This document shows positions 1,463 to 28,708 of a stretch of 64,000 nucleotides of DNA, in pieces. The first letter of the stretch is position 1. Every line of letters begins with the position of its first letter. Under the pieces are notes generated by a model. That model was given only the letters and a program-made list of their open reading frames with translations, did no database searches and was not told where the DNA came from. This DNA comes from a virus: IMG/VR virus record IMGVR_UViG_3300021181_000008, positions 1 to 64,000 of that record; one strand, written 5' to 3'. The translations under genes and the position numbers were made by a program.

Positions 1463-1523
1463 CGAGGTTTCGGCGGCTCTGGTGAACTTCCCCGGACTTC
1501 TGGCTGGTACGCTGGGGAGTCAT

Positions 1524-1583
1524 GCCAGGGGCGGTACTTATGCCCCTTCGGGTGCGACGCCCGACACGGAGGCCGCTCCTGGC
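1524..1583 (+). ncRNA. Candidate structured RNA (12-bp closing stem with internal cUUCGg hairpin)
   Basis: GCCAGGGGCGGT (1524-1535) pairs with GCCGCTCCTGGC (1572-1583); lies downstream of a -10-like TACGCT at 1508. Confidence 0.5.
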
Positions 1584-1590
1584 AGCGCTT

Positions 1591-1667
1591 GGGCCTGACC
1601 GGTATCGATCGGGGTAAATCCGCTTGCGGACGCTCGTGAGACTAGGGTTCGACTCCCTACAGGTCCA
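1591..1667 (+). ncRNA. Mini-tmRNA: tRNA-like domain only, no mRNA-like domain
   Basis: Acceptor stem GGGCCTG/CAGGTCC with G3:U pair and A discriminator; tmRNA-type D-loop A-CC-GG-TAT-CGA; GAC connector; T-arm TAGGG-TTCGACT-CCCTA; interior is only a short gCUUGc hairpin. Confidence 0.75.
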
Positions 1668-1690
1668 CTTTTGGCCCTAAGATGGCCTCC

Positions 1691-2281
1691 ATGAGCGATC
1701 CAGTGAACCACCCGAGCCACTACCACAGCGAGTACTGGCACTCGACCTGCGGCAAGCCGATCGAGTGCATCGACATCGTGCGGCACATGGACTTCAACAC
1801 CGGCAACGCCGTCAAGTACGCCTGGCGGGCCGGCAAGAAGGGCGACGCGATCGAGGACCTGGAAAAGGCCGTTTGGTACCTGAATGACCGGATTTCGGAG
1901 CTAAAGAGGGTCCAGGAGGCCCAAAAAGAGGCCGAAAAGGAGGAGCTGGACCGGGCCGAGCTGCTGGAGGAACTGGCCGGCCGCGAGCCCAAGATCGAGA
2001 CCGTGACCGCCGTCGAGTGCGACTACAACACGGTTCGCGGCGGCCCGGGCGAGTTCTGGGTGCTGAACGTCTACGACCACTGGTCGGCCAACGAAGCCTG
2101 GGCGAAGTTCAACCAGGACGCGCTTTTCCTCAATCACCCTCAGCGGGAGGCCATTCGCAGCTCCCTGCTCGGCCTGATCACGCGCATCGCCAGCAGCGCG
2201 TACGATAGGCTGGCTCCCTGGGTCAGGGAAGCGGCCGAGGACTGGGCTTACGCCGAAAAGGCGCGAGAGGAGCACTGCTGA
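1691..2281 (+). CDS. DUF3310 domain protein
   Basis: DPVNHPSHY...ECID...FNTGNAVKYAWRAGKKG..EDLEKAVWYL motif; leaderless start after TAAGAT. Confidence 0.8.
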   Translation: MSDPVNHPSHYHSEYWHSTCGKPIECIDIVRHMDFNTGNAVKYAWRAGKKGDAIEDLEKAVWYLNDRISELKRVQEAQKEAEKEELDRAELLEELAGREPKIETVTAVECDYNTVRGGPGEFWVLNVYDHWSANEAWAKFNQDALFLNHPQREAIRSSLLGLITRIASSAYDRLAPWVREAAEDWAYAEKAREEHC

Positions 2282-2853
2282 TGTGGGGTAATCCGGAAGA
2301 CGACGAAGAATACGTCACCAGGGATTCGGGCGAAAAAGCGGTCCACAGCGACGGCGTGCAGCGCGACACCCAGAACGGCAAGACGCTGTTCACGCTGCTG
2401 TTCCCCAAGGGCGTGCCGATGGCCCAGCAGCTCATGGTCCGGGTGGCCAAGCTCTACACCCGCGGAGCTGAGAAGTACGGCGACCGCAACTGGGAGAACT
2501 CCAGGAGCGCGGACACGCTGGCCCACCATGAGGACGCTCTCTGGCGGCACTTCATGAACTTCTACTTCGGGATCCAGGACGGCGAGGACCACGCGGCTGC
2601 CATCGTGTGGAACATCAACGCCGTCGAGCTGAACCGGCGCAACCTCCAGGGCAGCGAGGTCAAGCAGGAGATCACGCCGGAGAACATCACCGACGAGCAG
2701 GCCGACGCCGCGTTCAAGGCCGCCGCCAAGGCGTACGGGCAGCCCCAGAGCGAGTCGGACATCGCGTTCCACAACGTGCGGCGGGCCTGCCAGGAGAACT
2801 TCAAGACGGCCGAGCCCACCGACCGCAACCCGAACGATCACAGGTACCACTGA
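2281..2853 (+). CDS. dATP/dGTP diphosphohydrolase domain protein (DUF5664-like)
   Basis: G..RD...GK, GAEKYGDRNW, ALWRH, EDHAAAIVWN motifs. Confidence 0.75.
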   Translation: MWGNPEDDEEYVTRDSGEKAVHSDGVQRDTQNGKTLFTLLFPKGVPMAQQLMVRVAKLYTRGAEKYGDRNWENSRSADTLAHHEDALWRHFMNFYFGIQDGEDHAAAIVWNINAVELNRRNLQGSEVKQEITPENITDEQADAAFKAAAKAYGQPQSESDIAFHNVRRACQENFKTAEPTDRNPNDHRYH

Positions 2854-3041
2854 TGGGACTAGACGACGAGGCCGAGAAGCTCCGGCAGGCCGAGGCTTGG
2901 TTCTACGACGGCACCCCTGACCAGCTTGAGGCGGCGCTGGATTACGTCGGGCATGTGATCGCCGTGTCCCAGCGCCCGGAGCTGCGGTCCAAAGCATGGA
3001 GACTGCTCCACCGGATGGAAGAAAAGGAAAAGGCGAAATGA
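2853..3041 (+). CDS. Hypothetical protein
   Basis: Coupled to neighbours by TGATG/ATGA overlaps. Confidence 0.6.
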   Translation: MGLDDEAEKLRQAEAWFYDGTPDQLEAALDYVGHVIAVSQRPELRSKAWRLLHRMEEKEKAK

Positions 3042-3532
3042 GTCACCGGCTGTACATCGCCAACAAGATGACGGAGATCCCGTACTTCAACGCGCCGTGG
3101 TTCGACATGGCCGAGCGGTCGCTGCTCGCGATCCCCACCGTCATCCAGGTGTTCAACCCGGCCGAGCACGACCGCAACATGGGCTTCGACCCGATGCTCT
3201 GCCCGCACGGCAGCAAGGAAGAGTCGCGGTCGGCCGGGTTCAACCTCCGTGAGGCGCTTTCGGCCGACTGGGAGTGGATCGCCAAGTACAGCACCGGGCT
3301 CATCGTCGGCCCGGACTGGATGTCGTCGCCGGGGGCCAAGAGCGAGGTCGCTTGTCACCAGGCGCTCACGCTGCCAGTCTGGGAGTATGGGACCTTCCTC
3401 AAGTACTGGAACTCGCCGCTCCTGTGGACGCCCGAGTTGATGGTGCCGCCGCTGCGGCCGGTGTTCATGCCCGCACCAGTGCTAGCCGAGGAGCCGGACG
3501 ACGGCGGCTTCTTCTGTGATTGCCACGGATGA
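3038..3532 (+). CDS. DUF4406 / nucleoside 2-deoxyribosyltransferase-like protein
   Basis: LYIA..M..IPYFN..F, VFNPAE, W..SPGAKSE motifs. Confidence 0.7.
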   Translation: MSHRLYIANKMTEIPYFNAPWFDMAERSLLAIPTVIQVFNPAEHDRNMGFDPMLCPHGSKEESRSAGFNLREALSADWEWIAKYSTGLIVGPDWMSSPGAKSEVACHQALTLPVWEYGTFLKYWNSPLLWTPELMVPPLRPVFMPAPVLAEEPDDGGFFCDCHG

Positions 3533-4886: not shown

Positions 4887-5227
4887 CCGCAGCCAAGTAC
4901 AGGAACGCCGGGTGGACCGAGGAGGAGCTGTCCTTCATTCGTGATCACCCCACGATGCCGCCAATTGAACTTGCCAAGTGGCTGCCCGGCCGCACGCTGA
5001 ACGCCTGTGCTCAGGCCCGCTTCCGACTCGACGGACGCAAGCCGCCCAAGCCGACCGAGTACGACAAGAAGCTGCCGGGCGACTACATTGAGCAGCTCAG
5101 TCTGTTTCTGGTGGAGGATTTCGAATGTATGGAGATCTGGGCGCGCTGGCATGGCTACGCTACCTGGGAGACGCTGGGGATCGACGAGCGCGGTTTCGTG
5201 CATGTGCGCTGCACCGCAAAGGGGTAG
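4883..5227 (+). CDS. Myb/SANT-like helix-turn-helix protein
   Basis: WTEEEL..IRDH...ELAKWLPGRT..A...R pattern. Confidence 0.55.
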   Translation: MTAAKYRNAGWTEEELSFIRDHPTMPPIELAKWLPGRTLNACAQARFRLDGRKPPKPTEYDKKLPGDYIEQLSLFLVEDFECMEIWARWHGYATWETLGIDERGFVHVRCTAKG

Positions 5228-5672: not shown

Positions 5673-5951
5673 ATGCCAAATCAGCGGCCCATCGGTGACT
5701 ACCGGATCGACATCTTCCCGCTCAGTCAGGCGTACGAGATGGAGTACGGGCCGAGCTGCGACTGGTACTGGCGCGTCGAGCTGGGCGACATCCGCATCAA
5801 CGGCGGACTGACCTACGGAGTCAGCAGCGGGCGCGAGGCAGTGGACCGCGCCATCTACATGTACGAGTGGCAGGAGTTCAAAGAGGAGAACTACTGGGAT
5901 TCGGAAACATGTTCGTGGGTGAGGCGCGGTGACCTACCTCCGCTAGAATAG
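5673..5951 (+). CDS. Hypothetical protein
   Basis: ORF with phage-like codon usage. Confidence 0.55.
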   Translation: MPNQRPIGDYRIDIFPLSQAYEMEYGPSCDWYWRVELGDIRINGGLTYGVSSGREAVDRAIYMYEWQEFKEENYWDSETCSWVRRGDLPPLE

Positions 5952-5955
5952 CTAT

Positions 5956-6111
5956 GTGACATGGGCCGAAGTTGAGGAAGCAGTAGCACTCGCTATCACT
6001 GTCGAGTCTCCGCTGCTGCTGTCAGAAGCCATTGCGCTGACGCTGGCCCGAGCCGCGATTAAATCGATGCAGGAGCTAAGGCTGACCGCCGTGGTTCCCG
6101 ATGGTGGGTGA
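5956..6111 (+). CDS. 51-aa leaderless hypothetical protein (MTWAEVEEAV...), not in the ORF track
   Basis: TAGAAT -10 followed by 6 nt and GTG; stop overlaps the TerL start. Confidence 0.5.
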   Translation: MTWAEVEEAVALAITVESPLLLSEAIALTLARAAIKSMQELRLTAVVPDGG

Positions 6112-7771
6112 CGACGAGCCGGTAATCCTGCCCGATGGGTCTATTCTCCAGGGTGAGCTTCTAGGCCAGCAGGATCCCAGGTTCTTCACGGTCCCCGACC
6201 GGCATATCGAGCCCGTGGACGGGTGCCGATCATGTGCGTCGGACGTCCACAACACGGGCTGCGGCGAGTACGCGTCCGAAGAGGTTCTACCGTGGGCCGA
6301 GGCGCATGGCTACGAGATGGACCCGTGGCAGGACTGGTCGCTGCGGAACATTCTCGGGCTCAAGCCGTCCGGCCGCTGGGCAGCGGGAACCAACAAGCTG
6401 ATCGTCTCCCGCCAGAACGGCAAGGGCACGATTCTCGAAGTGCGCGAGCTGGGCGGCCTGTTCGTGACCGGCGAAGAGGTCATCGTGCACACCGCGCACG
6501 AGTACAAGACCGCCGTGGTGCACTTCAACAGGCTCAAGGAAACGCTGAGCCACTACCCCTCGCTGATGCGCCGCGTCCGGCGTATGCCCGCGTCCAACGT
6601 CGAGCACGCCATCGAGCTGAAGCCGCAGGCCACGCTCATCTTCGGCTCGGGCGGCAAGGAGATCCGCCGCAAGGTCGCCCCGGTGCTGGTGTTCCTGGCG
6701 CGGTCCAAGGGCTCCGGCCGAGGCTTCACAGGCGACACCATCGTCTACGACGAGGACATGTACCTCACCAGTGACCAGCTCGCCGCGTCGCTGCCTGCCA
6801 TGTCCGCCCGGGCCACCCGCATTCCGGGTCCGCAGGTCATCTACATGGGGTCGGCGGGCACCGAGGAGAGCGAGCAGGCGGGCAAGCTGCGCACTCGTAT
6901 CCTCAAGGACGACAAGAAGATGTTCGGGGCCGAGTGGTCGGTCAACCCGCACCTGGAGTCGTGCCCCCGCGACCTGGTGAACGGCCGGCGGGACAACTAC
7001 TACATCGTCTGCTCCGTGCACGACGACCGCGACGACCCGCGGAGCTGGGCCAAGGCCAACCCCGGCCTCAACTACCGGCTGACGTACCAGTACACCCGCG
7101 ACGAAGAGTTCATGAACCTCCCCGAGGAGGAGTTCGACAAGGAACGCCTATCAGTCGGCCGCTGGCCCTCGGAGGACGCCGCGTGGTCCGCCATCAGCGA
7201 GGACGCATGGCAGCATCTCACGAACGAGGACCCCGGCAAGCCCGCGCAGCCCATCGCGTTCGCGTTCGACATCGACGAGGACGGCCGGTCCGCAACCATC
7301 TGCGCGGCCTGGAAGCACCCCACCGGCCAGGTTGTGCTGGAGGTGCCGCGGAACTGCTCGCGCATGGGTTCCGACTGGGTTCTCGACGAGATGGACCGCA
7401 TCTACAAGCGCAACCACCCGGTGTGCATCGCCGTCCCCAAGAACGGCCCGGCCCAGGCTCTGATCGAGGACGGGAAGAAAATGTGGCGGGACCGGCTTAT
7501 AGAAGTCGGAACCCAGGACGAGGCAGCGGCTTACGCCTGGTTCATGCAGCAGGTGAGGGGCCAGAAGCTTTGGCACTTCGGCAAGACCAAGGCCCCCACC
7601 CTGTGGCATGCGGTGGGACACGCTGACACGCGAGTCGTCGGGGACGGAGGTAAGACGTTCAGCCGGCGGGACAGCGAGTCGGATATCACGCCCATCACAT
7701 CGGCTATGCTCGCTGCCTACGGACTGAACAAGATGGCGACGGGCTACGACCCGCTCAAGACGATTGGCTAG
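6101..7771 (+). CDS. terL: Terminase large subunit
   Basis: MDPWQ adenine-binding motif, VSRQNGKG Walker A, IVYDE Walker B, W.KANP, FAFDI nuclease motif. Confidence 0.93.
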   Translation: MVGDDEPVILPDGSILQGELLGQQDPRFFTVPDRHIEPVDGCRSCASDVHNTGCGEYASEEVLPWAEAHGYEMDPWQDWSLRNILGLKPSGRWAAGTNKLIVSRQNGKGTILEVRELGGLFVTGEEVIVHTAHEYKTAVVHFNRLKETLSHYPSLMRRVRRMPASNVEHAIELKPQATLIFGSGGKEIRRKVAPVLVFLARSKGSGRGFTGDTIVYDEDMYLTSDQLAASLPAMSARATRIPGPQVIYMGSAGTEESEQAGKLRTRILKDDKKMFGAEWSVNPHLESCPRDLVNGRRDNYYIVCSVHDDRDDPRSWAKANPGLNYRLTYQYTRDEEFMNLPEEEFDKERLSVGRWPSEDAAWSAISEDAWQHLTNEDPGKPAQPIAFAFDIDEDGRSATICAAWKHPTGQVVLEVPRNCSRMGSDWVLDEMDRIYKRNHPVCIAVPKNGPAQALIEDGKKMWRDRLIEVGTQDEAAAYAWFMQQVRGQKLWHFGKTKAPTLWHAVGHADTRVVGDGGKTFSRRDSESDITPITSAMLAAYGLNKMATGYDPLKTIG

Positions 7772-7773
7772 GC

Positions 7774-8598
7774 ATGCCAGACCCGATCAAGACCCCGATG
7801 CACCCCAAGCGCCCGCTGCCCGTGGGAACGAGGGTCCGCTACCACGGCTCCCACCCGGCGTACCACGGCATCTACATCGTCAGGCGCGTTGCCGACGCTG
7901 ACGCCCTGCGCGCGGTCGGCCGTAACCCGGAGCGCGACTACTTCATCGACCACGCTGGCTACGAGCTGTGGCCGGAGGGCGTCGAGGAGAGCTACCGAAA
8001 CGGCGACCAGTCGCTGCACTTCGTCCGGCGCGGCTCGATCACGGAGGAACCATTGCCACGTGAACTCTCACACCTGGAGATCCACAAGCACCAGGAGCGT
8101 GTGCTTGACCTGAACAAGGCCAAGGGCTGGTACGACGAGCCGGTGCCGTTCATTCAGGCGATGGGCCTGCTCGTCACGGAGATCGACGAGGCGCATGAGG
8201 CGTATCAGGAAAGCGGCGCGACGCACGACTTCAAGTCGGAGCTGGCCGACATCTACATCCGGCTCCTCGACGACTGCGCGCGGTTCCATGTGGACCTGTC
8301 CACTGCGGCAGACATCTACCGCTTCTCAATGGGCTCTGTCGCCGACCGTGAGCACGAAATCTCCGACGACCTGTGGCTGATCCTCAAGCCGGTCGTCAAG
8401 GCGATCGAGGAGTACCGGGTCTACGGGCTCGACTACGAGAACAAGGCCGGTCCGCAGATCGCCAAGGCGTTCGCCGGGATCTACGCCGCGCTGGAGTTCG
8501 TCTGCCGGAGCTACGGCGTCGAGCTGGCCAAGGCGTTCGACCTCAAGATGACCGTCAACTGGACGCGTCCCTACCGACACGGAGGCAAGCATGCCTGA
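7774..8598 (+). CDS. MazG-like nucleotide pyrophosphohydrolase with N-terminal extension
   Basis: LLVTEIDEAHEA...ELADIYIRLLD; C-terminal KMTVN..RPYRHGGK. Confidence 0.75.
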   Translation: MPDPIKTPMHPKRPLPVGTRVRYHGSHPAYHGIYIVRRVADADALRAVGRNPERDYFIDHAGYELWPEGVEESYRNGDQSLHFVRRGSITEEPLPRELSHLEIHKHQERVLDLNKAKGWYDEPVPFIQAMGLLVTEIDEAHEAYQESGATHDFKSELADIYIRLLDDCARFHVDLSTAADIYRFSMGSVADREHEISDDLWLILKPVVKAIEEYRVYGLDYENKAGPQIAKAFAGIYAALEFVCRSYGVELAKAFDLKMTVNWTRPYRHGGKHA

Positions 8599-9152: not shown

Positions 9153-9292
9153 AGCAGCGCGTGTGGATCGTGACCCAGACCGGCTGCTGCGGTCATGACG
9201 AGATCGTGGGCGTGTTCGCCGATGAGCAGGACGCCAAGGACAAGGCCGATTCCCTGGTCGAAGCCTCCTGGGACTCTTGGGAAGTGGACTGA
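9149..9292 (+). CDS. 47-aa hypothetical protein
   Basis: GTGA and TGATG overlaps with both neighbours. Confidence 0.55.
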   Translation: MKQRVWIVTQTGCCGHDEIVGVFADEQDAKDKADSLVEASWDSWEVD

Positions 9293-10299
9293 TGAAGCAC
9301 ATCGAGCTGTTCGCCGGCGCGGGCGGCATGGCGCTGGGCATCGCGCAGGCCGGGTTCGACCCGTTCATCTACGTCGAGAACGACAAGTACTGCGCCCGCA
9401 CGCTGCGGACCAACTATCCCGCGTTCGGCGGCAACATGTTCGTGGACGAGCGCGATGTCCGCACGATGAAGTTCGACGACCTACAGACCGACATCGCGCT
9501 GCTGAGCGGCGGCATCCCGTGCCAGCCATGGTCGGTCGGCGGTCTGGCGAAGGGGATCGAGGACTCGCGCAACCTCTGGCCGGAGTTCACCCGCGTGCTG
9601 GGCGAGTGCCTGCCGAGGGCGTTCATGATCGAGAACGTGCAGGGCATCCTCCGGCAGCAGTTCAAGCCGTACCTCGGCTACCTGCTCAACGCGCTCAGGA
9701 GCCCGACTGTGCGGCGCTGGGGCGACGAGCCGTGGGAGTCCCACGCCAAGGCTGTGCGGTACGCAGGCGGCAAGGGGAGCCTGCACTACGACATCCACAT
9801 CCTGATCGTCAACGCCAAGAACTACGGCGTGCCGCAGGAGCGCAAGCGCGTCTTCCTGGTGGGCTTCCGCAAGGACTTGGGCATTGACTTCAAGTTCGAG
9901 TACCAGTACCACTTCGGGACGTTCAACCACCTGTGGACGCTGCGCGAGGCCATCGGCCATATGCCGGACCCGCGTACTGCCGCCGCGCGTGAGTACCACG
10001 ACCACATCTTCGTGCCGGGGGCCAGCGTCTACCGTGGCCACACGCCCAACCTGCTCGACAAGCCCGCCAAGACCATCAAGGCGGGAGTTCACGGCATGCC
10101 CGGCGGCGAGGGCGTGGTGGAGCTGGACGACGGCAGCATCCGCTACCTGACGGTCAGGGAACTGGCCAGAATTCAGACCTTTCCGGATGACTATCGGTTC
10201 TCCGGCTCGCGCACGCAGCAAGTCAAGCAGATCGGGAATGCCGTGCCCGTCAAGCTTGCTGCATATGTCGCCAAGTCCATCGCAGTGCATCTTGGGTAG
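9292..10299 (+). CDS. DNA (cytosine-5) methyltransferase
   Basis: ELFAGAGG, GGIPCQ, ENV, QERKR and GNAVP motifs. Confidence 0.95.
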   Translation: MKHIELFAGAGGMALGIAQAGFDPFIYVENDKYCARTLRTNYPAFGGNMFVDERDVRTMKFDDLQTDIALLSGGIPCQPWSVGGLAKGIEDSRNLWPEFTRVLGECLPRAFMIENVQGILRQQFKPYLGYLLNALRSPTVRRWGDEPWESHAKAVRYAGGKGSLHYDIHILIVNAKNYGVPQERKRVFLVGFRKDLGIDFKFEYQYHFGTFNHLWTLREAIGHMPDPRTAAAREYHDHIFVPGASVYRGHTPNLLDKPAKTIKAGVHGMPGGEGVVELDDGSIRYLTVRELARIQTFPDDYRFSGSRTQQVKQIGNAVPVKLAAYVAKSIAVHLG

Positions 10300-10457: not shown

Positions 10458-11585
10458 ATGAAACTGACCGACTTGCTCAGCGCGACGCTCCTCAAGGAAA
10501 TGCTTGAGCAGAAGTACGTCAAGGCGCAGAGCCACCCCGCGATCCCCGGCCTGACGATCTACAACTACACAGACCAGGCGATGTGGGACAAGGCGTGGAA
10601 CGACGTCACCACCCAGTGCCGGGGCCTGATCGTGGACAGCGACGGCCTGATCGTCGCGCGCCCGTGGGAGAAGTTCTTCAACTACGGCGAGTTCACGGGC
10701 GAGATCAACCCCGGCCGCGCCGCCGGCCCCGGTCAGCGGGTGCTCGACCTGAACTCGCTGGTGCACGTCACGGACAAGAAGGACGGCTCGCTCGGCATCC
10801 TGTACCCGACGCCGCAGGGCCACGCCATCGCCACCCGTGGCTCGTTCAAGTCGGAGCAGGCCGTGCGCGGCTCGTTCATCTGGTGGAAGCGGTACGCCGA
10901 GTTCCCCGTGCCCGATGGCTGGACGCTGATGTTCGAGATCGTGTATCCGGAGAACCGGATCGTGCTCGACTACGCGGGCCTCGACGACCTGATCCTGCTG
11001 GGCGCGCGGGAGATCGAGACGGGCGTGGTGGTTGGTCCCGACGACTTCCTCCTCATCCCGTGGCAAGGCCCGCGCACTGAGGTGTTCGAGGACCGGTCGC
11101 TCGCGCAGGCGCTATGCCGCCACCCGCGCCCGAACGCCGAGGGCGTTGTCGTGCGCTACGTGACCGGCCCCGACTCCGGCCTGATGGTGAAGATCAAGCA
11201 GGACGACTACGTGCTCATGCACCGGCTCATCACCGGCATGAACGCGCGGGTGGTCTGGGAGCGCCTGATGGCCAACGAGACGACCGCTGACATCTGCGCG
11301 GGCGTGCCCGAGGAGTTCTGGCCGTGGATCAACGAGGTCGGCTACGACCTGCTGGAGCAGCACGCCGAGATCTCCGGCCGGGCCTACCGCGAGTACAACT
11401 CCATCGTGGTCAACCTCGACCAGGGCTGGACCCGGAAGGACTTCGCGGCCAAGGCGGTAGAGTCCGACTGCAAGGCGCTGCTGTTCCTGCTGCTCGACGG
11501 CCGGGACATCGCAGAGCTGGTCTGGAAGCAAATCAAGCCATCGGGTGAGCGCTCGATGAAGTACATCTCGGAGGACGTGGCATGA
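10458..11585 (+). CDS. T4 Rnl1-like RNA ligase
   Basis: CRGL, ARPWEKFFN, KKDGSLG (motif I), FEIV, EGVVV, KIK. Confidence 0.9.
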   Translation: MKLTDLLSATLLKEMLEQKYVKAQSHPAIPGLTIYNYTDQAMWDKAWNDVTTQCRGLIVDSDGLIVARPWEKFFNYGEFTGEINPGRAAGPGQRVLDLNSLVHVTDKKDGSLGILYPTPQGHAIATRGSFKSEQAVRGSFIWWKRYAEFPVPDGWTLMFEIVYPENRIVLDYAGLDDLILLGAREIETGVVVGPDDFLLIPWQGPRTEVFEDRSLAQALCRHPRPNAEGVVVRYVTGPDSGLMVKIKQDDYVLMHRLITGMNARVVWERLMANETTADICAGVPEEFWPWINEVGYDLLEQHAEISGRAYREYNSIVVNLDQGWTRKDFAAKAVESDCKALLFLLLDGRDIAELVWKQIKPSGERSMKYISEDVA

Positions 11586-11788
11586 CTTACGGAGACGAGC
11601 CCAAGTACGCGACGCTGGAGGCGTTCAAGCACGCCAAGGACTCGGTGGGCGCGGTGCTCTACATCGACAACGACCAGATCGACGCCTACGACTCCGAGAC
11701 GGGCGAGGTGCTGCTTCTCCAGCTCCATCCCAGCGAGTTCATCCAGCAGGCGACCGAGCTGCTGGGGTTCTCCTACGAGCACGTGTGA
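11582..11788 (+). CDS. Hypothetical protein
   Basis: Coupled small ORF. Confidence 0.6.
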   Translation: MTYGDEPKYATLEAFKHAKDSVGAVLYIDNDQIDAYDSETGEVLLLQLHPSEFIQQATELLGFSYEHV

Positions 11789-11979
11789 TGGACGAGTTCC
11801 CCGAGGACGAAACCCGGCCGAGGATGGTGGGCGAGTGCACGGGGTGCCGGTGCCGGGGATCAGCGGAGCCGAAGAAGGTGCCGTTGGTCCTCGACCCGTT
11901 CACTCGGGAGATCTACGGCGAGGACGAGTACGTCTATCTGTGCGACGAGTGCTACCAGGAAAGGGCTGACGACATATGA
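11785..11979 (+). CDS. Small Cys-rich protein
   Basis: CxxC and LCDECY motifs. Confidence 0.55.
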   Translation: MMDEFPEDETRPRMVGECTGCRCRGSAEPKKVPLVLDPFTREIYGEDEYVYLCDECYQERADDI

Positions 11980-12929
11980 CCGAGCTAGTGATCACGAGGG
12001 GCCTGCCGGCCTCCGGCAAAACGACGTTCGCCCGAATCTGGGTGGACCGGGACCGAGCGCACCGCGCCCGCGTCAACCGCGACGACCTGCGACGCATGGT
12101 GGACGACGGCGTGTTCGTCAAGGGCGAGACGGAGCAGCGGATCCAGGCGCTTCGCAACGCGGCCATCAAGAGCCTGCTCGACCGGGGCGTCAGCGTCGTG
12201 TGCGACGACACCAACCTGCCTAACCGCGTCGTGCGCGACCTGGTGACGCTGGCTGCGCGGGCCAAGGCCGAGTGGCGGATCGAGGACTTCACGACCGTCC
12301 AGCTCGACGTCTGCACGGCCCGCAACGCGGCTCGCACGGACAAGGACCCGGTGCCGCGCCATGTGATCGAGGACATGCACCTGCGGTACCTGCACGGCAA
12401 GGTACTGCCCCTGCCGTTCTACCCGTTCAGCGCCGAGGACCCGGCGGCGAGCCTGTATGAGCCCGACGCTTCCCTCCCCGACGCGTTCATCTGCGACATC
12501 GACGGCACCGTGGCGCTCAAGGGCGACCGTGGGCCGTTCGACGAGAGCCGCGTGCACGAGGACCGGCCCAACCCGCGCGTGATCGAGGTGGTGAACAACC
12601 ACATCAAGCTGGGCTACCAGCCGGTCTTCCTGTCCGGCCGCACCGAGGGGTGCTACAGCGAGACGCGCAAGTGGCTGGGCCAGTACCTGGAGTACGACTG
12701 GCCGGGCCACAGCAACGACTACGGCATCATCGAGAAGCCCTTCCGCCTGCTCATGCGACCGCTCGGCGACCACCGCAAGGACTCGATCGTCAAGCGCGAG
12801 CTGTTCGACAAGTACGTGCGCGCGGAGTACAACGTGCGCTTCGTGCTGGACGACCGCGACCAGGTGGTGAGGATGTGGCGCGAGGAGCTTGGCCTGACCT
12901 GCCTTCAGGTTGCGCCGGGCGACTTCTAG
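11976..12929 (+). CDS. pseT: Polynucleotide kinase/3'-phosphatase (PNKP)
   Basis: GLPASGKTT P-loop, NRDDLR, HAD motif DIDGT, SGR, DDR. Confidence 0.93.
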   Translation: MTELVITRGLPASGKTTFARIWVDRDRAHRARVNRDDLRRMVDDGVFVKGETEQRIQALRNAAIKSLLDRGVSVVCDDTNLPNRVVRDLVTLAARAKAEWRIEDFTTVQLDVCTARNAARTDKDPVPRHVIEDMHLRYLHGKVLPLPFYPFSAEDPAASLYEPDASLPDAFICDIDGTVALKGDRGPFDESRVHEDRPNPRVIEVVNNHIKLGYQPVFLSGRTEGCYSETRKWLGQYLEYDWPGHSNDYGIIEKPFRLLMRPLGDHRKDSIVKRELFDKYVRAEYNVRFVLDDRDQVVRMWREELGLTCLQVAPGDF

Positions 12930-16758: not shown

Positions 16759-18210
16759 GTGGCATCGGAACTCGCCCAGTCGCTCAACGACACTCGGCTT
16801 CGCCTTGCGGAGGAGCTGAAGGGCCTCAACGCAACCGTCGCTGCTGAGAAGCGCAACGTCTTCACCACCGACGAGAAGATCAAGTACGAGAACCTCCACA
16901 ACGAGCTGGACTCGGTGGACACCCGCCTGCGCGGGATCCTCGCCGACGAGAAGCGCGACAAGGAGACCTCCGCAGCGTTCGACGACCTCGGCGGACGGCA
17001 GGCGACCAACCTGCGCAGCAAGAGCCAGACCGAGGACCCGTTCACGGAGCGCGCTCGCGCCTTCCTCGACCGGGACCGCGCCGACGTTCGCTCGCTGGAC
17101 ATCGGCGACTGGAAGTCCTCGCGACTGGTCAATCGCCTGATCGAGAACCGCTCGACCGGCCCGGCGACCCAGTTCCCCGGCGGCGGCCTGACTCCGTACG
17201 AGTCTCGTGTGCTGTACGACAACTACGTCGGCGGTGGCACCCCTGGATCGTTCACCAACGTCTCCGGTGCCGGCCTCGTGCCGATCGACTTCTACGACCA
17301 GATGATCTCGTACCTCATTGAGGTCTCCGGCCTCATGCAGTGCGGCCCCTCGGTCATCAACTCGCAGGGTGGAGAGCCCCTCCAGATCCCCTACGTCACC
17401 AACCAGACCGGCCAGACCACGGCCGGCGCGCAGGTGAACATCTCCGCTCAGCAGGGTGCGCCGCTTCCGGGCGCTGACCCCGGCTTCGGGCAGAAGACGC
17501 TCTCGTCGAACAAGTTCGGCATCCTCGTCCAGGTCGCTCGCGAGCTGATCGACGACTCCGGCATCAACCTGCTCCAGTACCTGGCGATGTCGGCCGGGCG
17601 CGCGGTGGGCAACATGCTCGGAACCTCGCTGGTCAACGGCACCAACGGAATGTCCGGCGGAATCGTCGCCGGTACCAACTCCGCTCCGGTGGCCGTGACC
17701 GGTGGCCTGTCCAACGTCATCTCGGCGCAGTACAACACGCCGGGCGGCACGGGCATCACCGGTGCTCCGACCTACAACAACCTGCTGGACCTTGAGTACA
17801 GCATCATCGCCCCGTACCGTCAGTCGCGCTCGTGCTACTGGCTGGCGGCGGACAAGACGCTGGGTCTGCTTCGCAAGATGGTGGACACCAACGCTCGTCC
17901 CGTCTGGGAGCCCTCGACGATCCTCGGGTCGCCGGACCTCCTGCTGGGCAAGCCGCTGGTCGCGGACCCGTTCATGCCGGCCTACGGGCAGACGGCGGGC
18001 ACCGGGAACAAGTCCATCGCGTTCGGCGACTTCTCGCAGTACTTCGTGCGCCTCATCGGCGGAGTGCGGTTCGAGCGGTCGGACGACTTCGCCTTCAACA
18101 CGGACCTGGTGACCTTCCGTGCCATCGTCCGTGCGGACGGGAACCTGATGAACCCGCCCACCTCGATCACCACGCAGCCGCTCCAGCTTTTCCAGGGCGG
18201 CGCGAGCTGA
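16759..18210 (+). CDS. Major capsid protein (HK97 fold)
   Basis: Coiled-coil delta domain, G.LVP, RELIDDS, LLGKP, FGDFS, R.DG. Confidence 0.93.
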   Translation: MASELAQSLNDTRLRLAEELKGLNATVAAEKRNVFTTDEKIKYENLHNELDSVDTRLRGILADEKRDKETSAAFDDLGGRQATNLRSKSQTEDPFTERARAFLDRDRADVRSLDIGDWKSSRLVNRLIENRSTGPATQFPGGGLTPYESRVLYDNYVGGGTPGSFTNVSGAGLVPIDFYDQMISYLIEVSGLMQCGPSVINSQGGEPLQIPYVTNQTGQTTAGAQVNISAQQGAPLPGADPGFGQKTLSSNKFGILVQVARELIDDSGINLLQYLAMSAGRAVGNMLGTSLVNGTNGMSGGIVAGTNSAPVAVTGGLSNVISAQYNTPGGTGITGAPTYNNLLDLEYSIIAPYRQSRSCYWLAADKTLGLLRKMVDTNARPVWEPSTILGSPDLLLGKPLVADPFMPAYGQTAGTGNKSIAFGDFSQYFVRLIGGVRFERSDDFAFNTDLVTFRAIVRADGNLMNPPTSITTQPLQLFQGGAS

Positions 18211-18785: not shown

Positions 18786-19148
18786 ATGGCACTCACAAGC
18801 CTCAATGCGCCCCCGCCCGAGCCCCAGCCGCTCGGTCCCGTCCCGCAGGGCCACCGCCGAGTGATGTTCCTGAGTCCCTACAACATGTCTGACCTCAACG
18901 CGGGCAAGGATGAGGTCCGTGATGTGCCTACTGACCTCGCCCAGCAGTACGTGAGGAACGGCATGGCGATGATGTTCGATGACCTGCCGCCTGAGCCCGA
19001 GCCTGAGGTAGTCGAGGTCGAGCGACCGGCCATGAACGCACCCAAGGCCGCCTGGGTCGATTACGCCGTCTCGCAGGGCATGAACAAGCTGGACGCCCAG
19101 TGCATGACCAAGGCCGACCTCCAGAACGAGTACAACGAGCGGCTCTAG
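18786..19148 (+). CDS. Hypothetical head-region protein
   Basis: AGGAG RBS; C-terminal P...A.KAAWVDYA...G....MTKADL motif. Confidence 0.7.
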   Translation: MALTSLNAPPPEPQPLGPVPQGHRRVMFLSPYNMSDLNAGKDEVRDVPTDLAQQYVRNGMAMMFDDLPPEPEPEVVEVERPAMNAPKAAWVDYAVSQGMNKLDAQCMTKADLQNEYNERL

Positions 19149-19864
19149 AAGTCGTCCCAGTACTCGCGGCGGACGAACTGTAGCCACTGCTCGACGACGC
19201 CCTCGTCAGCGACATCGGGCAGTACGCCGGGAATGTCGAACTCGCCCTCGGCCCACTTGAGGTAGTCCACGGCCATGTCGAGGTTCCCGGCCGCCACCTC
19301 CTCGCCGAACAGGCGGCAGAGCCCTGCCTGACCGTCGCGCAGCCTGACCGTCAGCTTGCCTGTCCGGTGAAGTTCGACACCCTGCTCCAGCAGTCGCCAC
19401 AGGTGGCGTGCGTGCTTCTCGGTGCGCTTGCGGGTGTCGGAGCTGAACGAGCCGTCCTCCCTGTTCTTGATGCGGCGGAACTGCTGGCTGGCATAGCCGA
19501 AGTAGGCATCGCGGACGTACTTCTCCGACAGAAACGTCTTCCGGATGTCGATGAGCATCTCGCCCGCGTCCTGCGACACCTCGTACTCGTCCAGCCACAG
19601 CAGCTCGGTCACCGTGGGATTGCAGTGCAGCAGCAGGCCGGCCAGCTTGCCCGCTTCGTGGTAGGTGAAGTCGGGGGCGGTGCCGTGCCAGGTGGACGTC
19701 TTGACAGTGGGAGGATGCAGCCCGTGAAGCTGGGAAGTGGGCGCGACATAGCACCCGATCCGGTCAATGTCCGAGGCGGGAGTGGCAAGGCCATAGGCAG
19801 TCGAGCCGTTTATGCCACCGAGGATTAGTTCTCCGCGGGGATTGGGGTCTTCGAGAGGAAGCAT
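19145..19864 (-). CDS. Pol-beta-superfamily nucleotidyltransferase (RlaP/YcgL-like)
   Basis: GSTAYGLATP.SD.D, NPT..ELLW, K.ARHL.RLL; leaderless TAGGAT + 7 nt + ATG. Confidence 0.85.
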   Translation of the reverse strand: MLPLEDPNPRGELILGGINGSTAYGLATPASDIDRIGCYVAPTSQLHGLHPPTVKTSTWHGTAPDFTYHEAGKLAGLLLHCNPTVTELLWLDEYEVSQDAGEMLIDIRKTFLSEKYVRDAYFGYASQQFRRIKNREDGSFSSDTRKRTEKHARHLWRLLEQGVELHRTGKLTVRLRDGQAGLCRLFGEEVAAGNLDMAVDYLKWAEGEFDIPGVLPDVADEGVVEQWLQFVRREYWDDF

Positions 19865-19935
19865 GCGTGTCATCCTACTATGCTCGCGCGGCGCAACTCT
19901 CTATCCTGGGGGTAGGACTACAGAGGAGAAGAACC

Positions 19936-28148: not shown

Positions 28149-28708
28149 GGGCAAGCTGGCGCGACACCTACCTGGAGATGGCGCGCGTACTGGCCGAGAT
28201 GCGGGCTGACTGCACCCGGCGCAGGGTCGGCGCGATCGTCTTCGAGCCCGACAGCGGCTACCAGGTGTCCTCGGGGTACAACGGAGCGCCGCGCGGGATG
28301 CCAGGGTGCCTGAGCGACGGAGCGTGCCCGCGCGGCCAGCACTACGAAATCAGGGGCACGATCGTCCACAGCACGCGCAACCCTGAGGACATCGGCAAGA
28401 AGCGCGGCATGGGCGACTGCATCTGCGGCAACCGGTGGCCGTGCGAGGGCTCTGTCGAGCCCGGCTCCAGCTACGACACCGGCCCTGGCTCCTGCATCGC
28501 CATCCACGCTGAGGCCAACGCCCTGCTGCGGGCCGGCCCCAAGGCGCGGGGCATGGTGATGGTGGTCACCGAGAAGCCCTGCGACGGCTGCCTCAAGCTG
28601 TGCCGCGGAGCGGGGCTCGACTGCGTGATCTGGCCGTCCGGCAACCTCAATGCTCCCTTCGATTACGAACAGTTCCCCAAGCCTCCGATGAGGTCTGTGT
28701 TCGACTAG
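28145..28708 (+). CDS. dCMP deaminase
   Basis: C.RR.VGA, GYNG.P, HAEANA, PC..C. Confidence 0.9.
   Translation: MRASWRDTYLEMARVLAEMRADCTRRRVGAIVFEPDSGYQVSSGYNGAPRGMPGCLSDGACPRGQHYEIRGTIVHSTRNPEDIGKKRGMGDCICGNRWPCEGSVEPGSSYDTGPGSCIAIHAEANALLRAGPKARGMVMVVTEKPCDGCLKLCRGAGLDCVIWPSGNLNAPFDYEQFPKPPMRSVFD

Follow-up and report, generated by a model that had tools for sequence, protein, structure and literature searches.

Trans-translation is near-universal in bacteria, and an RNA that mimics the entry half of tmRNA would be a compact natural inhibitor or modifier of this process. A short element near the left end of a viral contig raises the question of whether a phage encodes such an RNA, i.e., a tmRNA reduced to its tRNA-like domain (TLD), and what this RNA would do in the infected cell. 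The window that we analyzed is the whole 64,000-nt stretch of DNA in which the element lies, and it forms the first 64 kb of an IMG/VR virus record (78,969 bp, ~65% G+C). We examined the anatomy of the element, its fit to RNA models, its relatives in other viruses, its genomic setting and the explanations that can be offered for its presence.

Anatomy of the element

The element is 77 nt long and occupies positions 1591..1667 of the plus strand, as do all parts described in this section; its sequence reads exactly as segmented in the original prediction. The span proposed there, 1591-1670, stands for 1591-1667, whereas the last three positions, 1668-1670, are trailing sequence (CTT) and not CCA. 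Since CTT directly follows A1667, the CCA end is not encoded. The acceptor stem has 7 bp, formed by the 5' strand GGGCCUG (1591..1597) and the 3' strand CAGGUCC at 1660-1666, which together with the discriminator A1667 takes up 1660..1667; the third pair of this stem, G1593:U1664, is the G3:U70 wobble. The D-arm is replaced by a D-loop, ACC-GGUAUCGA (1598..1608; family consensus GGUUUCGA), and its columns are invariant or nearly invariant in alignments A1-A3. Helix 2 is formed by a 5' strand at 1609..1615 and a 3' strand at 1632..1639; this is the imperfect helix that had been described, with 7 pairs, three of which are wobbles, and a bulged G1636 (alignment to the covariance model R1, see below). 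The GAC connector (1640..1642) corresponds to the consensus GGAC of both the family and tmRNA, including the tmRNA of Amycolatopsis, and precedes the T-arm UAGGG-UUCGACU-CCCUA (1643..1659), for which a partial match to cyano_tmRNA was obtained. Thus, the predicted acceptor stem with a G3:U wobble, the A discriminator, the GAC connector and the T-arm are all present.

Between the D-loop and the GAC connector there are only 30 nt (1610-1639), and the place of the pseudoknots and the tag ORF of tmRNA is occupied by a capping hairpin, UCCG-CUUG-CGGA, with a CUUG loop (1619..1630); the family consensus of this hairpin is CCG-CNNG-CGG, and the same hairpin is found in the RNA of Mycobacterium phage DS6A. 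No anticodon loop, tag ORF, pseudoknot or resume codon was found in 1591-1667; an anticodon loop is excluded because the capping loop has 4 nt. The pseudoknots, the resume codon and the tag ORF being missing, the RNA cannot tag or terminate. It should be noted that the MFE folding of the element alone is unremarkable (z -1.4); the support for the element therefore comes from homology and covariation, and not from the MFE fold.

Tests with RNA models and gene detectors

The covariance model R1 was built from 15 unrelated viral-contig sequences, with the window and its close kin left out. This model matched the element end to end (model positions 1-78) with a score of 64.8 bits (E 1.2e-14), and the runner-up match within the 64-kb window scored 15 bits. 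The bacterial tmRNA model RF00023 aligned 1591-1670 to model positions 1-374 with 41.5 bits, such that both termini were matched and the middle was missing; this agrees with the proposal of a tRNA-like domain that lacks the whole message domain. The gathering cut-off of RF00023 is 47 bits, so that the element lies below it, and in local mode the model also scores some bacterial tRNAs, up to 43 bits; therefore, the RF00023 score alone is not decisive. The proposal that the element is not a tRNA was confirmed by the tRNA model RF00005, which gave no match on the element at E<=10 and scored the three true tRNAs of the window at 49-64 bits, and by the 4-nt capping loop. The mitochondrial tmRNA model RF02544 gave no match at E<=10 either.

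Standard annotation did not recover the gene. ARAGORN missed the element, produced no tag peptide for it and reported only three ordinary tRNAs in the window (60.8-61.0 kb); Rfam at gathering thresholds also missed it and found only three ordinary tRNAs at 60.8-61.0 kb. An Rfam scan by E-value returned a single partial match, that of the 3' part of the element to cyano_tmRNA. Given the R1 match, the RF00023 alignment and the result for RF00005, we are highly confident that the element is a TLD-only (tag-less) mini-tmRNA gene of the DS6A type.

A family of TLD-only RNAs in viral genomes

Two close relatives, L002 and L004, were identified by exact matches to a 23-mer of the 3'-terminal part of the element. 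The copy in L002 is identical to the element at 71 of 77 positions (92%) in an ungapped alignment, whereas the flanks are 34-67% identical with indels; the copy in L004 is identical at 76 of 77 positions, and its flanks diverge. Both substitutions in the 3' strand of helix 2 of L002 keep or improve pairing (U·G to U-A and G·U to G-C).

A wider set was obtained with a loose pattern applied to IMG/VR (GGTTTCGA followed, after 25-55 nt, by GGGTTCGANTCCC), which left G3:U70 and the discriminator unconstrained and gave at least 120 viral matches. About 100 of the 120 viral matches listed are members of the same architecture, 75-81 nt in length. There are 74 distinct sequences among the viral matches listed, all of which start with GGG and carry G3:U70 and a discriminator A; counted over the unique pattern matches among those listed, discriminator A is present in 76 of 77 and CCA is encoded in only 12 of 77. 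About nine further distinct members were added by a variant of the pattern, GGATTCGA. When the same pattern was applied to one genome per prokaryotic species, none of the 120 matches listed was a mini-TLD and all were ordinary tRNAs; this contrast between viruses and bacteria is that of a sample, with at least 120 matches on each side. Judged from these sequence matches, the family looks large and phage-specific.

Covariation across related phages, which the original prediction had named as a check, is found throughout this family, and G3:U70 and A73 are kept. In the alignment of 67 distinct members, 97% of cells pair, compared to 40-51% with slid partners, both-side changes occur in 18 of 23 pairs, and none of 500 shuffles reached the observed values of pairing and covariation. 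The positions that covary freely are acceptor positions 4-7, helix 2 (both-side changes in all 8 pairs of the family helix) and the outer T-stem. Conversely, no variation is seen at G1-C72 and G2-C71, and 65 of 66 distinct sequences have G3:U70. Family-wide covariation, along with conservation above that of the flanks, is indicative of purifying selection.

The mini-TLDs of relatives were further analyzed in 27 viral records, where they scored 56-81 bits with RF00023; the cut-off of this model was passed by 19 of the 27 records, one of them by way of a full-length tmRNA. A full-length tmRNA was found in only one of the 27 mini-bearing records, that of a 363-kb jumbo phage. About a third of the members lie within same-strand tRNA arrays, and this position implies tRNA-like transcription and processing. 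Unannotated copies are also present in the cultured Streptomyces phages LuckySocke, GiJojo, pSt2308, BRock and Alone3; for example, the copy of LuckySocke (L259) is at 17977-18054, between tRNA-Val and tRNA-Ser, and scores 99.9 bits with R1. The family is thus unannotated in the cultured-phage records that we examined, and ARAGORN, which failed to report it in the window, did not report it in any of the 60 loci tested; the covariance model offers an annotation fix for the family. In GiJojo, a gene for a hypothetical protein has been annotated at the site of the mini-tmRNA, probably by mistake.

Other searches were less productive. The two matches of a pattern for the 5' half (L005 and L006) were unrelated coding sequences, no relative was confirmed when related loci were sought with the protein of the DUF3310 gene downstream of the element, and two metagenome scans yielded nothing or only the tRNA arrays of jumbo phages. 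Our literature search found no paper on the breadth of the phage TLD-only family.

Genomic setting and the upstream leader

The large terminase of the source contig (6101-7771) is ~32% identical to terminases of Rhodococcus, Arthrobacter and Mycobacterium phages, and portal, protease and capsid genes are present; judging by homology, the terminase and the structural genes point to an actinophage. The contig is ~67% complete, and no cultured phage was matched by its first 6 kb in a megablast search. Matching DNA is present in soil metagenome runs. In a soil metatranscriptome, we found a 261-nt contig over 1500-1760 with a depth of ~2, in an RNA library that may contain DNA; hence, we give it no weight as a sign of transcription or as a marker of RNA ends.

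The element is preceded by ~1 kb of repetitive non-coding DNA. The first clear genes follow directly after it and encode a DUF3310/nucleotide-kinase-like protein (1682-2281) and a MazZ-like protein (2281-2853). Upstream, on the plus strand, there is a probable promoter -10 element, TACGCT (1508-1513), the motif TACGCT/TACGAT being common to the window, L002 and L004. It is followed by a structured 5' leader hairpin (about 1518-1590, plus strand), which accompanies the gene in L002 and L004 as well: all three sequences keep the closing stem CAUGCCAG/CCUGGCAG, and the interior differs in L002. For each of the leaders of the window, L002 and L004, folding gives a long hairpin (z -3.5, -2.5 and -3.1, respectively) that stops 5-7 nt before G1. 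A scan of 1000-2000 for sigma-70 consensus promoters and terminators found none. Cleavage by RNase P at 1591 would separate the leader from the mini-TLD, and might in this way set free the leader hairpin, ~70 nt in length, as another small RNA.

At the left end itself (positions 1-1030), ~1 kb of non-coding DNA has 54% G+C, compared to 65% elsewhere. In this region 19-mers recur, 6-bp palindromes are dense and one tract is C/A-rich; most probably we see here a genome end, a packaging site or an origin. Genes of nucleotide metabolism cluster at 1682-3532, 7774-8598 and 9277-10299; the cluster comprises the DUF3310 kinase-like gene, the MazZ-like dATP/dGTP diphosphohydrolase N-domain, and genes for a nucleoside 2-deoxyribosyltransferase-like protein, a pyrophosphatase and a C5 DNA methylase, and hints at modified DNA. 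The idea of a Z-genome, suggested by the MazZ-like domain (2281-2853), was dropped as unsupported: the contig has no PurZ-type gene.

Comparison with known systems

The closest known case is the RNA of DS6A. The original prediction had held that message-less tmRNAs were known from some protist mitochondria and not from phages; this is contradicted by the literature, where descriptions of the TLD-only tmRNA of DS6A date from 2009-2014 and from 2025. A passage in Hudson, Lau & Williams (2014) lists "Mycobacterium phage DS6A (TLD only)" (PMC4131195), and the 2025 tmRNA database paper gives the DS6A TLD-only tmRNA again (PMC11915505). According to the former passage, which cites Mao et al. 2009, RNA of the DS6A type inhibits E. 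coli tmRNA, and the inhibition is independent of charging (PMC4131195). It should be noted that these inhibition data concern the RNA of another phage in a heterologous host and are available here through secondary citations of Mao et al. 2009. The suggestion in the original prediction that the RNA could act as an SmpB sponge matches this report on the DS6A RNA.

We located the DS6A gene with R1 at 28478-28557 (60.6 bits), between gp33 and gp34, where it is unannotated in GenBank. The DS6A "TLD only" RNA (tmRNA Website tmID 11587) and the RNA of the window share G3:U70 in the acceptor stem, A73, a D-loop that lacks its stem, a short helix 2 capped by the CCG-CNNG-CGG hairpin, a T-arm, a length of ~80 nt and the lack of an encoded CCA. 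Both score just under the RF00023 cut-off (43.2 bits for DS6A and 41.5 for the window), and both are intergenic in an actinophage that has RNA repair genes and lacks SmpB. The two differ in that DS6A belongs to a separate phage lineage and has the D-loop GGUGGUCGA, compared to GGUAUCGA in the window, and in that helix 2 of the window has a bulge and three wobbles. Their positions also differ: the DS6A gene lies between late and replication genes, whereas that of the window follows a conserved leader hairpin at the left end of the genome. The kind of RNA is already known from DS6A, and the window holds a further, divergent actinophage member, with its own promoter-leader module, but no new category. 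The single published case of DS6A now represents a large phage family.

Compared to bacterial tmRNA (ssrA, RF00023), the RNA has the same GGG start, G3:U70, A73, GGUxUCGA D-loop, entry and exit of helix 2, (G)GAC and T-arm. The ends of the Amycolatopsis tmRNA, for example, have the same D-loop, GGAC connector and T-arm, and CCA is also not encoded there. Unlike bacterial tmRNA, the RNA of the window lacks ~300 nt (pseudoknots, resume codon and tag ORF) and is encoded by a virus without SmpB. The message-less tmRNAs of organelles (jakobid and oomycete mitochondria, RF02544; ~65-bp plastid forms, PMC11915505) are similarly reduced to the TLD and have no tag frame, but there is no detectable sequence relation (RF02544 gave no match). 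Moreover, the organellar forms are served by an SmpB of their own, which is imported, and presumably assist rescue, whereas the phage form is reported, in the passages cited above, to be inhibitory. With tRNA-Ala, the RNA shares the AlaRS identity set and the acceptor/T-arm minihelix, and differs in having no D-stem, anticodon stem-loop or anticodon.

Possible function and alternatives

We consider it reasonably probable, by analogy with DS6A, that the element is a functional phage gene whose product mimics tmRNA in a dominant-negative manner, in competition for host SmpB, EF-Tu and stalled ribosomes. SmpB was found in none of the 27 mini-bearing viral records, 10 of which are at least 90% complete, and is absent from the source contig (~67% complete); hence, any interaction with SmpB must involve the host protein. 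The elbow formed by the D-loop and the T-loop, which SmpB recognizes in tmRNA, is kept, and binding is predicted here. All alanine identity elements (G1-C72, G2-C71, G3:U70 and A73) are kept as well. The -10-like element, ~80 nt upstream, would drive transcription of the gene together with its structured leader; the RNA would be released in the manner of a tRNA, by host RNase P and by processing on the 3' side, and the host CCA-adding enzyme would complete its 3' end. The RNA would then rival host tmRNA for host SmpB; since it can probably be alanylated, the competition would extend to EF-Tu and the A site of stalled ribosomes. The expected outcome is less ssrA tagging and degradation during infection, with a presumed benefit to the phage; a point against this reading is that some phages depend on trans-translation.

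The near-invariant alanine identity suggests that charging matters. Specifically, the near-invariance of G3:U70 points to a charging-dependent step, which a model of an SmpB sponge alone does not explain. The main rival to the dominant-negative mimic is tag-free rescue, which we regard as possible at a distinctly lower probability: the alanylated mini-TLD, together with host SmpB and EF-Tu, would enter stalled ribosomes, take over the nascent chain and add one Ala without a degron, and the ribosome would then be freed by hydrolysis of the ArfB or Pth type. Proteins of the phage whose mRNAs are damaged or cleaved, or whose synthesis meets rare codons, would thereby escape ssrA-directed proteolysis. 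The near-invariance of G3:U70, G2-C71 and A73 in a very divergent family argues for selection for charging, too, and the frequent position in tRNA arrays fits a translation-support module; a precedent is given in the 2025 database paper, according to which mitochondria and some plastids retain CDS-less tmRNAs along with SmpB (PMC11915505). However, an RNA without a stop codon needs another release factor, and none was found linked to the gene; moreover, what the passage on the DS6A-type RNA reports is inhibition, and charging-independent inhibition at that (PMC4131195).

There is also a tentative reading, to which we give about the same low probability as to tag-free rescue: the RNAs of the family would act in an alanylation-dependent manner instead of as a passive SmpB sponge. 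The charged mini-TLD would enter stalled ribosomes and cap their chains with an untagged Ala, such that phage proteins are diverted from ssrA-directed proteolysis, e.g., after the action of host defences that cleave mRNA or tRNA, or else it would lock host rescue in a dead-end state. In the lineage of the window, the leader hairpin freed by RNase P would be a further stable small RNA with its own role.

We think it improbable that the RNA is a decoy or bait that absorbs or senses host nucleases cutting tRNA or tmRNA in abortive infection, in conjunction with phage RNA repair. The source phage does have an RNA repair set, identified with Pfam (a T4 Rnl1-type RNA ligase, a PNKP with kinase and HAD phosphatase domains, and an RlaP nucleotidyltransferase; 10458-12929, and 19145-19873 on the minus strand), DS6A encodes RtcB, and in LuckySocke an RNA ligase is 1.6 kb from the mini-TLD. 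However, RtcB was found in 2 of 24 mini-bearing records and the Rnl1-type ligase in 3 of 24; with only 5 carriers in 24, RNA repair is not a regular partner of the mini-TLD. Besides, the anticodon loop, the usual target of such nucleases, is missing.

It is still less probable that the RNA is an aberrant Ala acceptor, i.e., a derivative of tRNA-Ala without the anticodon arm that serves as an Ala donor outside rescue or as a processing or primer element. An acceptor/T minihelix with G3:U70 is all that AlaRS needs, and to this extent such a molecule would suffice; the D-loop, the position of helix 2 and the GAC connector are nevertheless of the tmRNA type, and the lack of an RF00005 match and the short capping loop also speak against a tRNA origin. 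Finally, a non-functional remnant, i.e., a deleted copy of host ssrA acquired by imprecise excision, or an attP core, is the least credible explanation: tmRNA genes are often integration sites and, according to a passage in PMC9004378, ssrA fragments are found in prophages, but we reject it because both TLD halves are present and paired, no tyrosine integrase (PF00589) was found in the 79-kb contig (~67% complete), and the element shows family-wide covariation and conservation above its flanks, and it should be added that the integrase of DS6A is ~10 kb from its mini-TLD.

Why phages tamper with ribosome rescue is a tractable question in Streptomyces or Mycobacterium smegmatis systems.

Related and variant loci

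L003 (IMGVR_UViG_3300044796_000662, 363 kb) is a jumbo phage or provirus in which a 9-kb stretch holds at least 16 tRNAs. A class A RNase P RNA (8153-8517, 299.5 bits) is encoded as well, and a full-length tmRNA of 387 nt lies elsewhere in the record. An RNA of 71 nt with a G3:U70 acceptor and a T-arm was found at 5094-5164; this look-alike was tried as a member and not counted, its R1 score being only 22.8 bits, a weak fit. In L073, ARAGORN called a 324-nt tmRNA on the minus strand (5905-6228) with an odd tag, AWDYNPMWVQCSA; this full-length call is probably false, because it borrows the 3' end of an 80-nt mini-TLD (5908-5987). Longer TLD-like variants of 88-89 nt, with R1 scores of 33-36 bits, were seen in L011 (4077-4164), L035, L054, L076, L107 and L109 and in the Microbacterium phage Quenya (L260, 1439-1527). 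These variants keep the G3:U70 acceptor, have a different, larger insert and may be a second subfamily.
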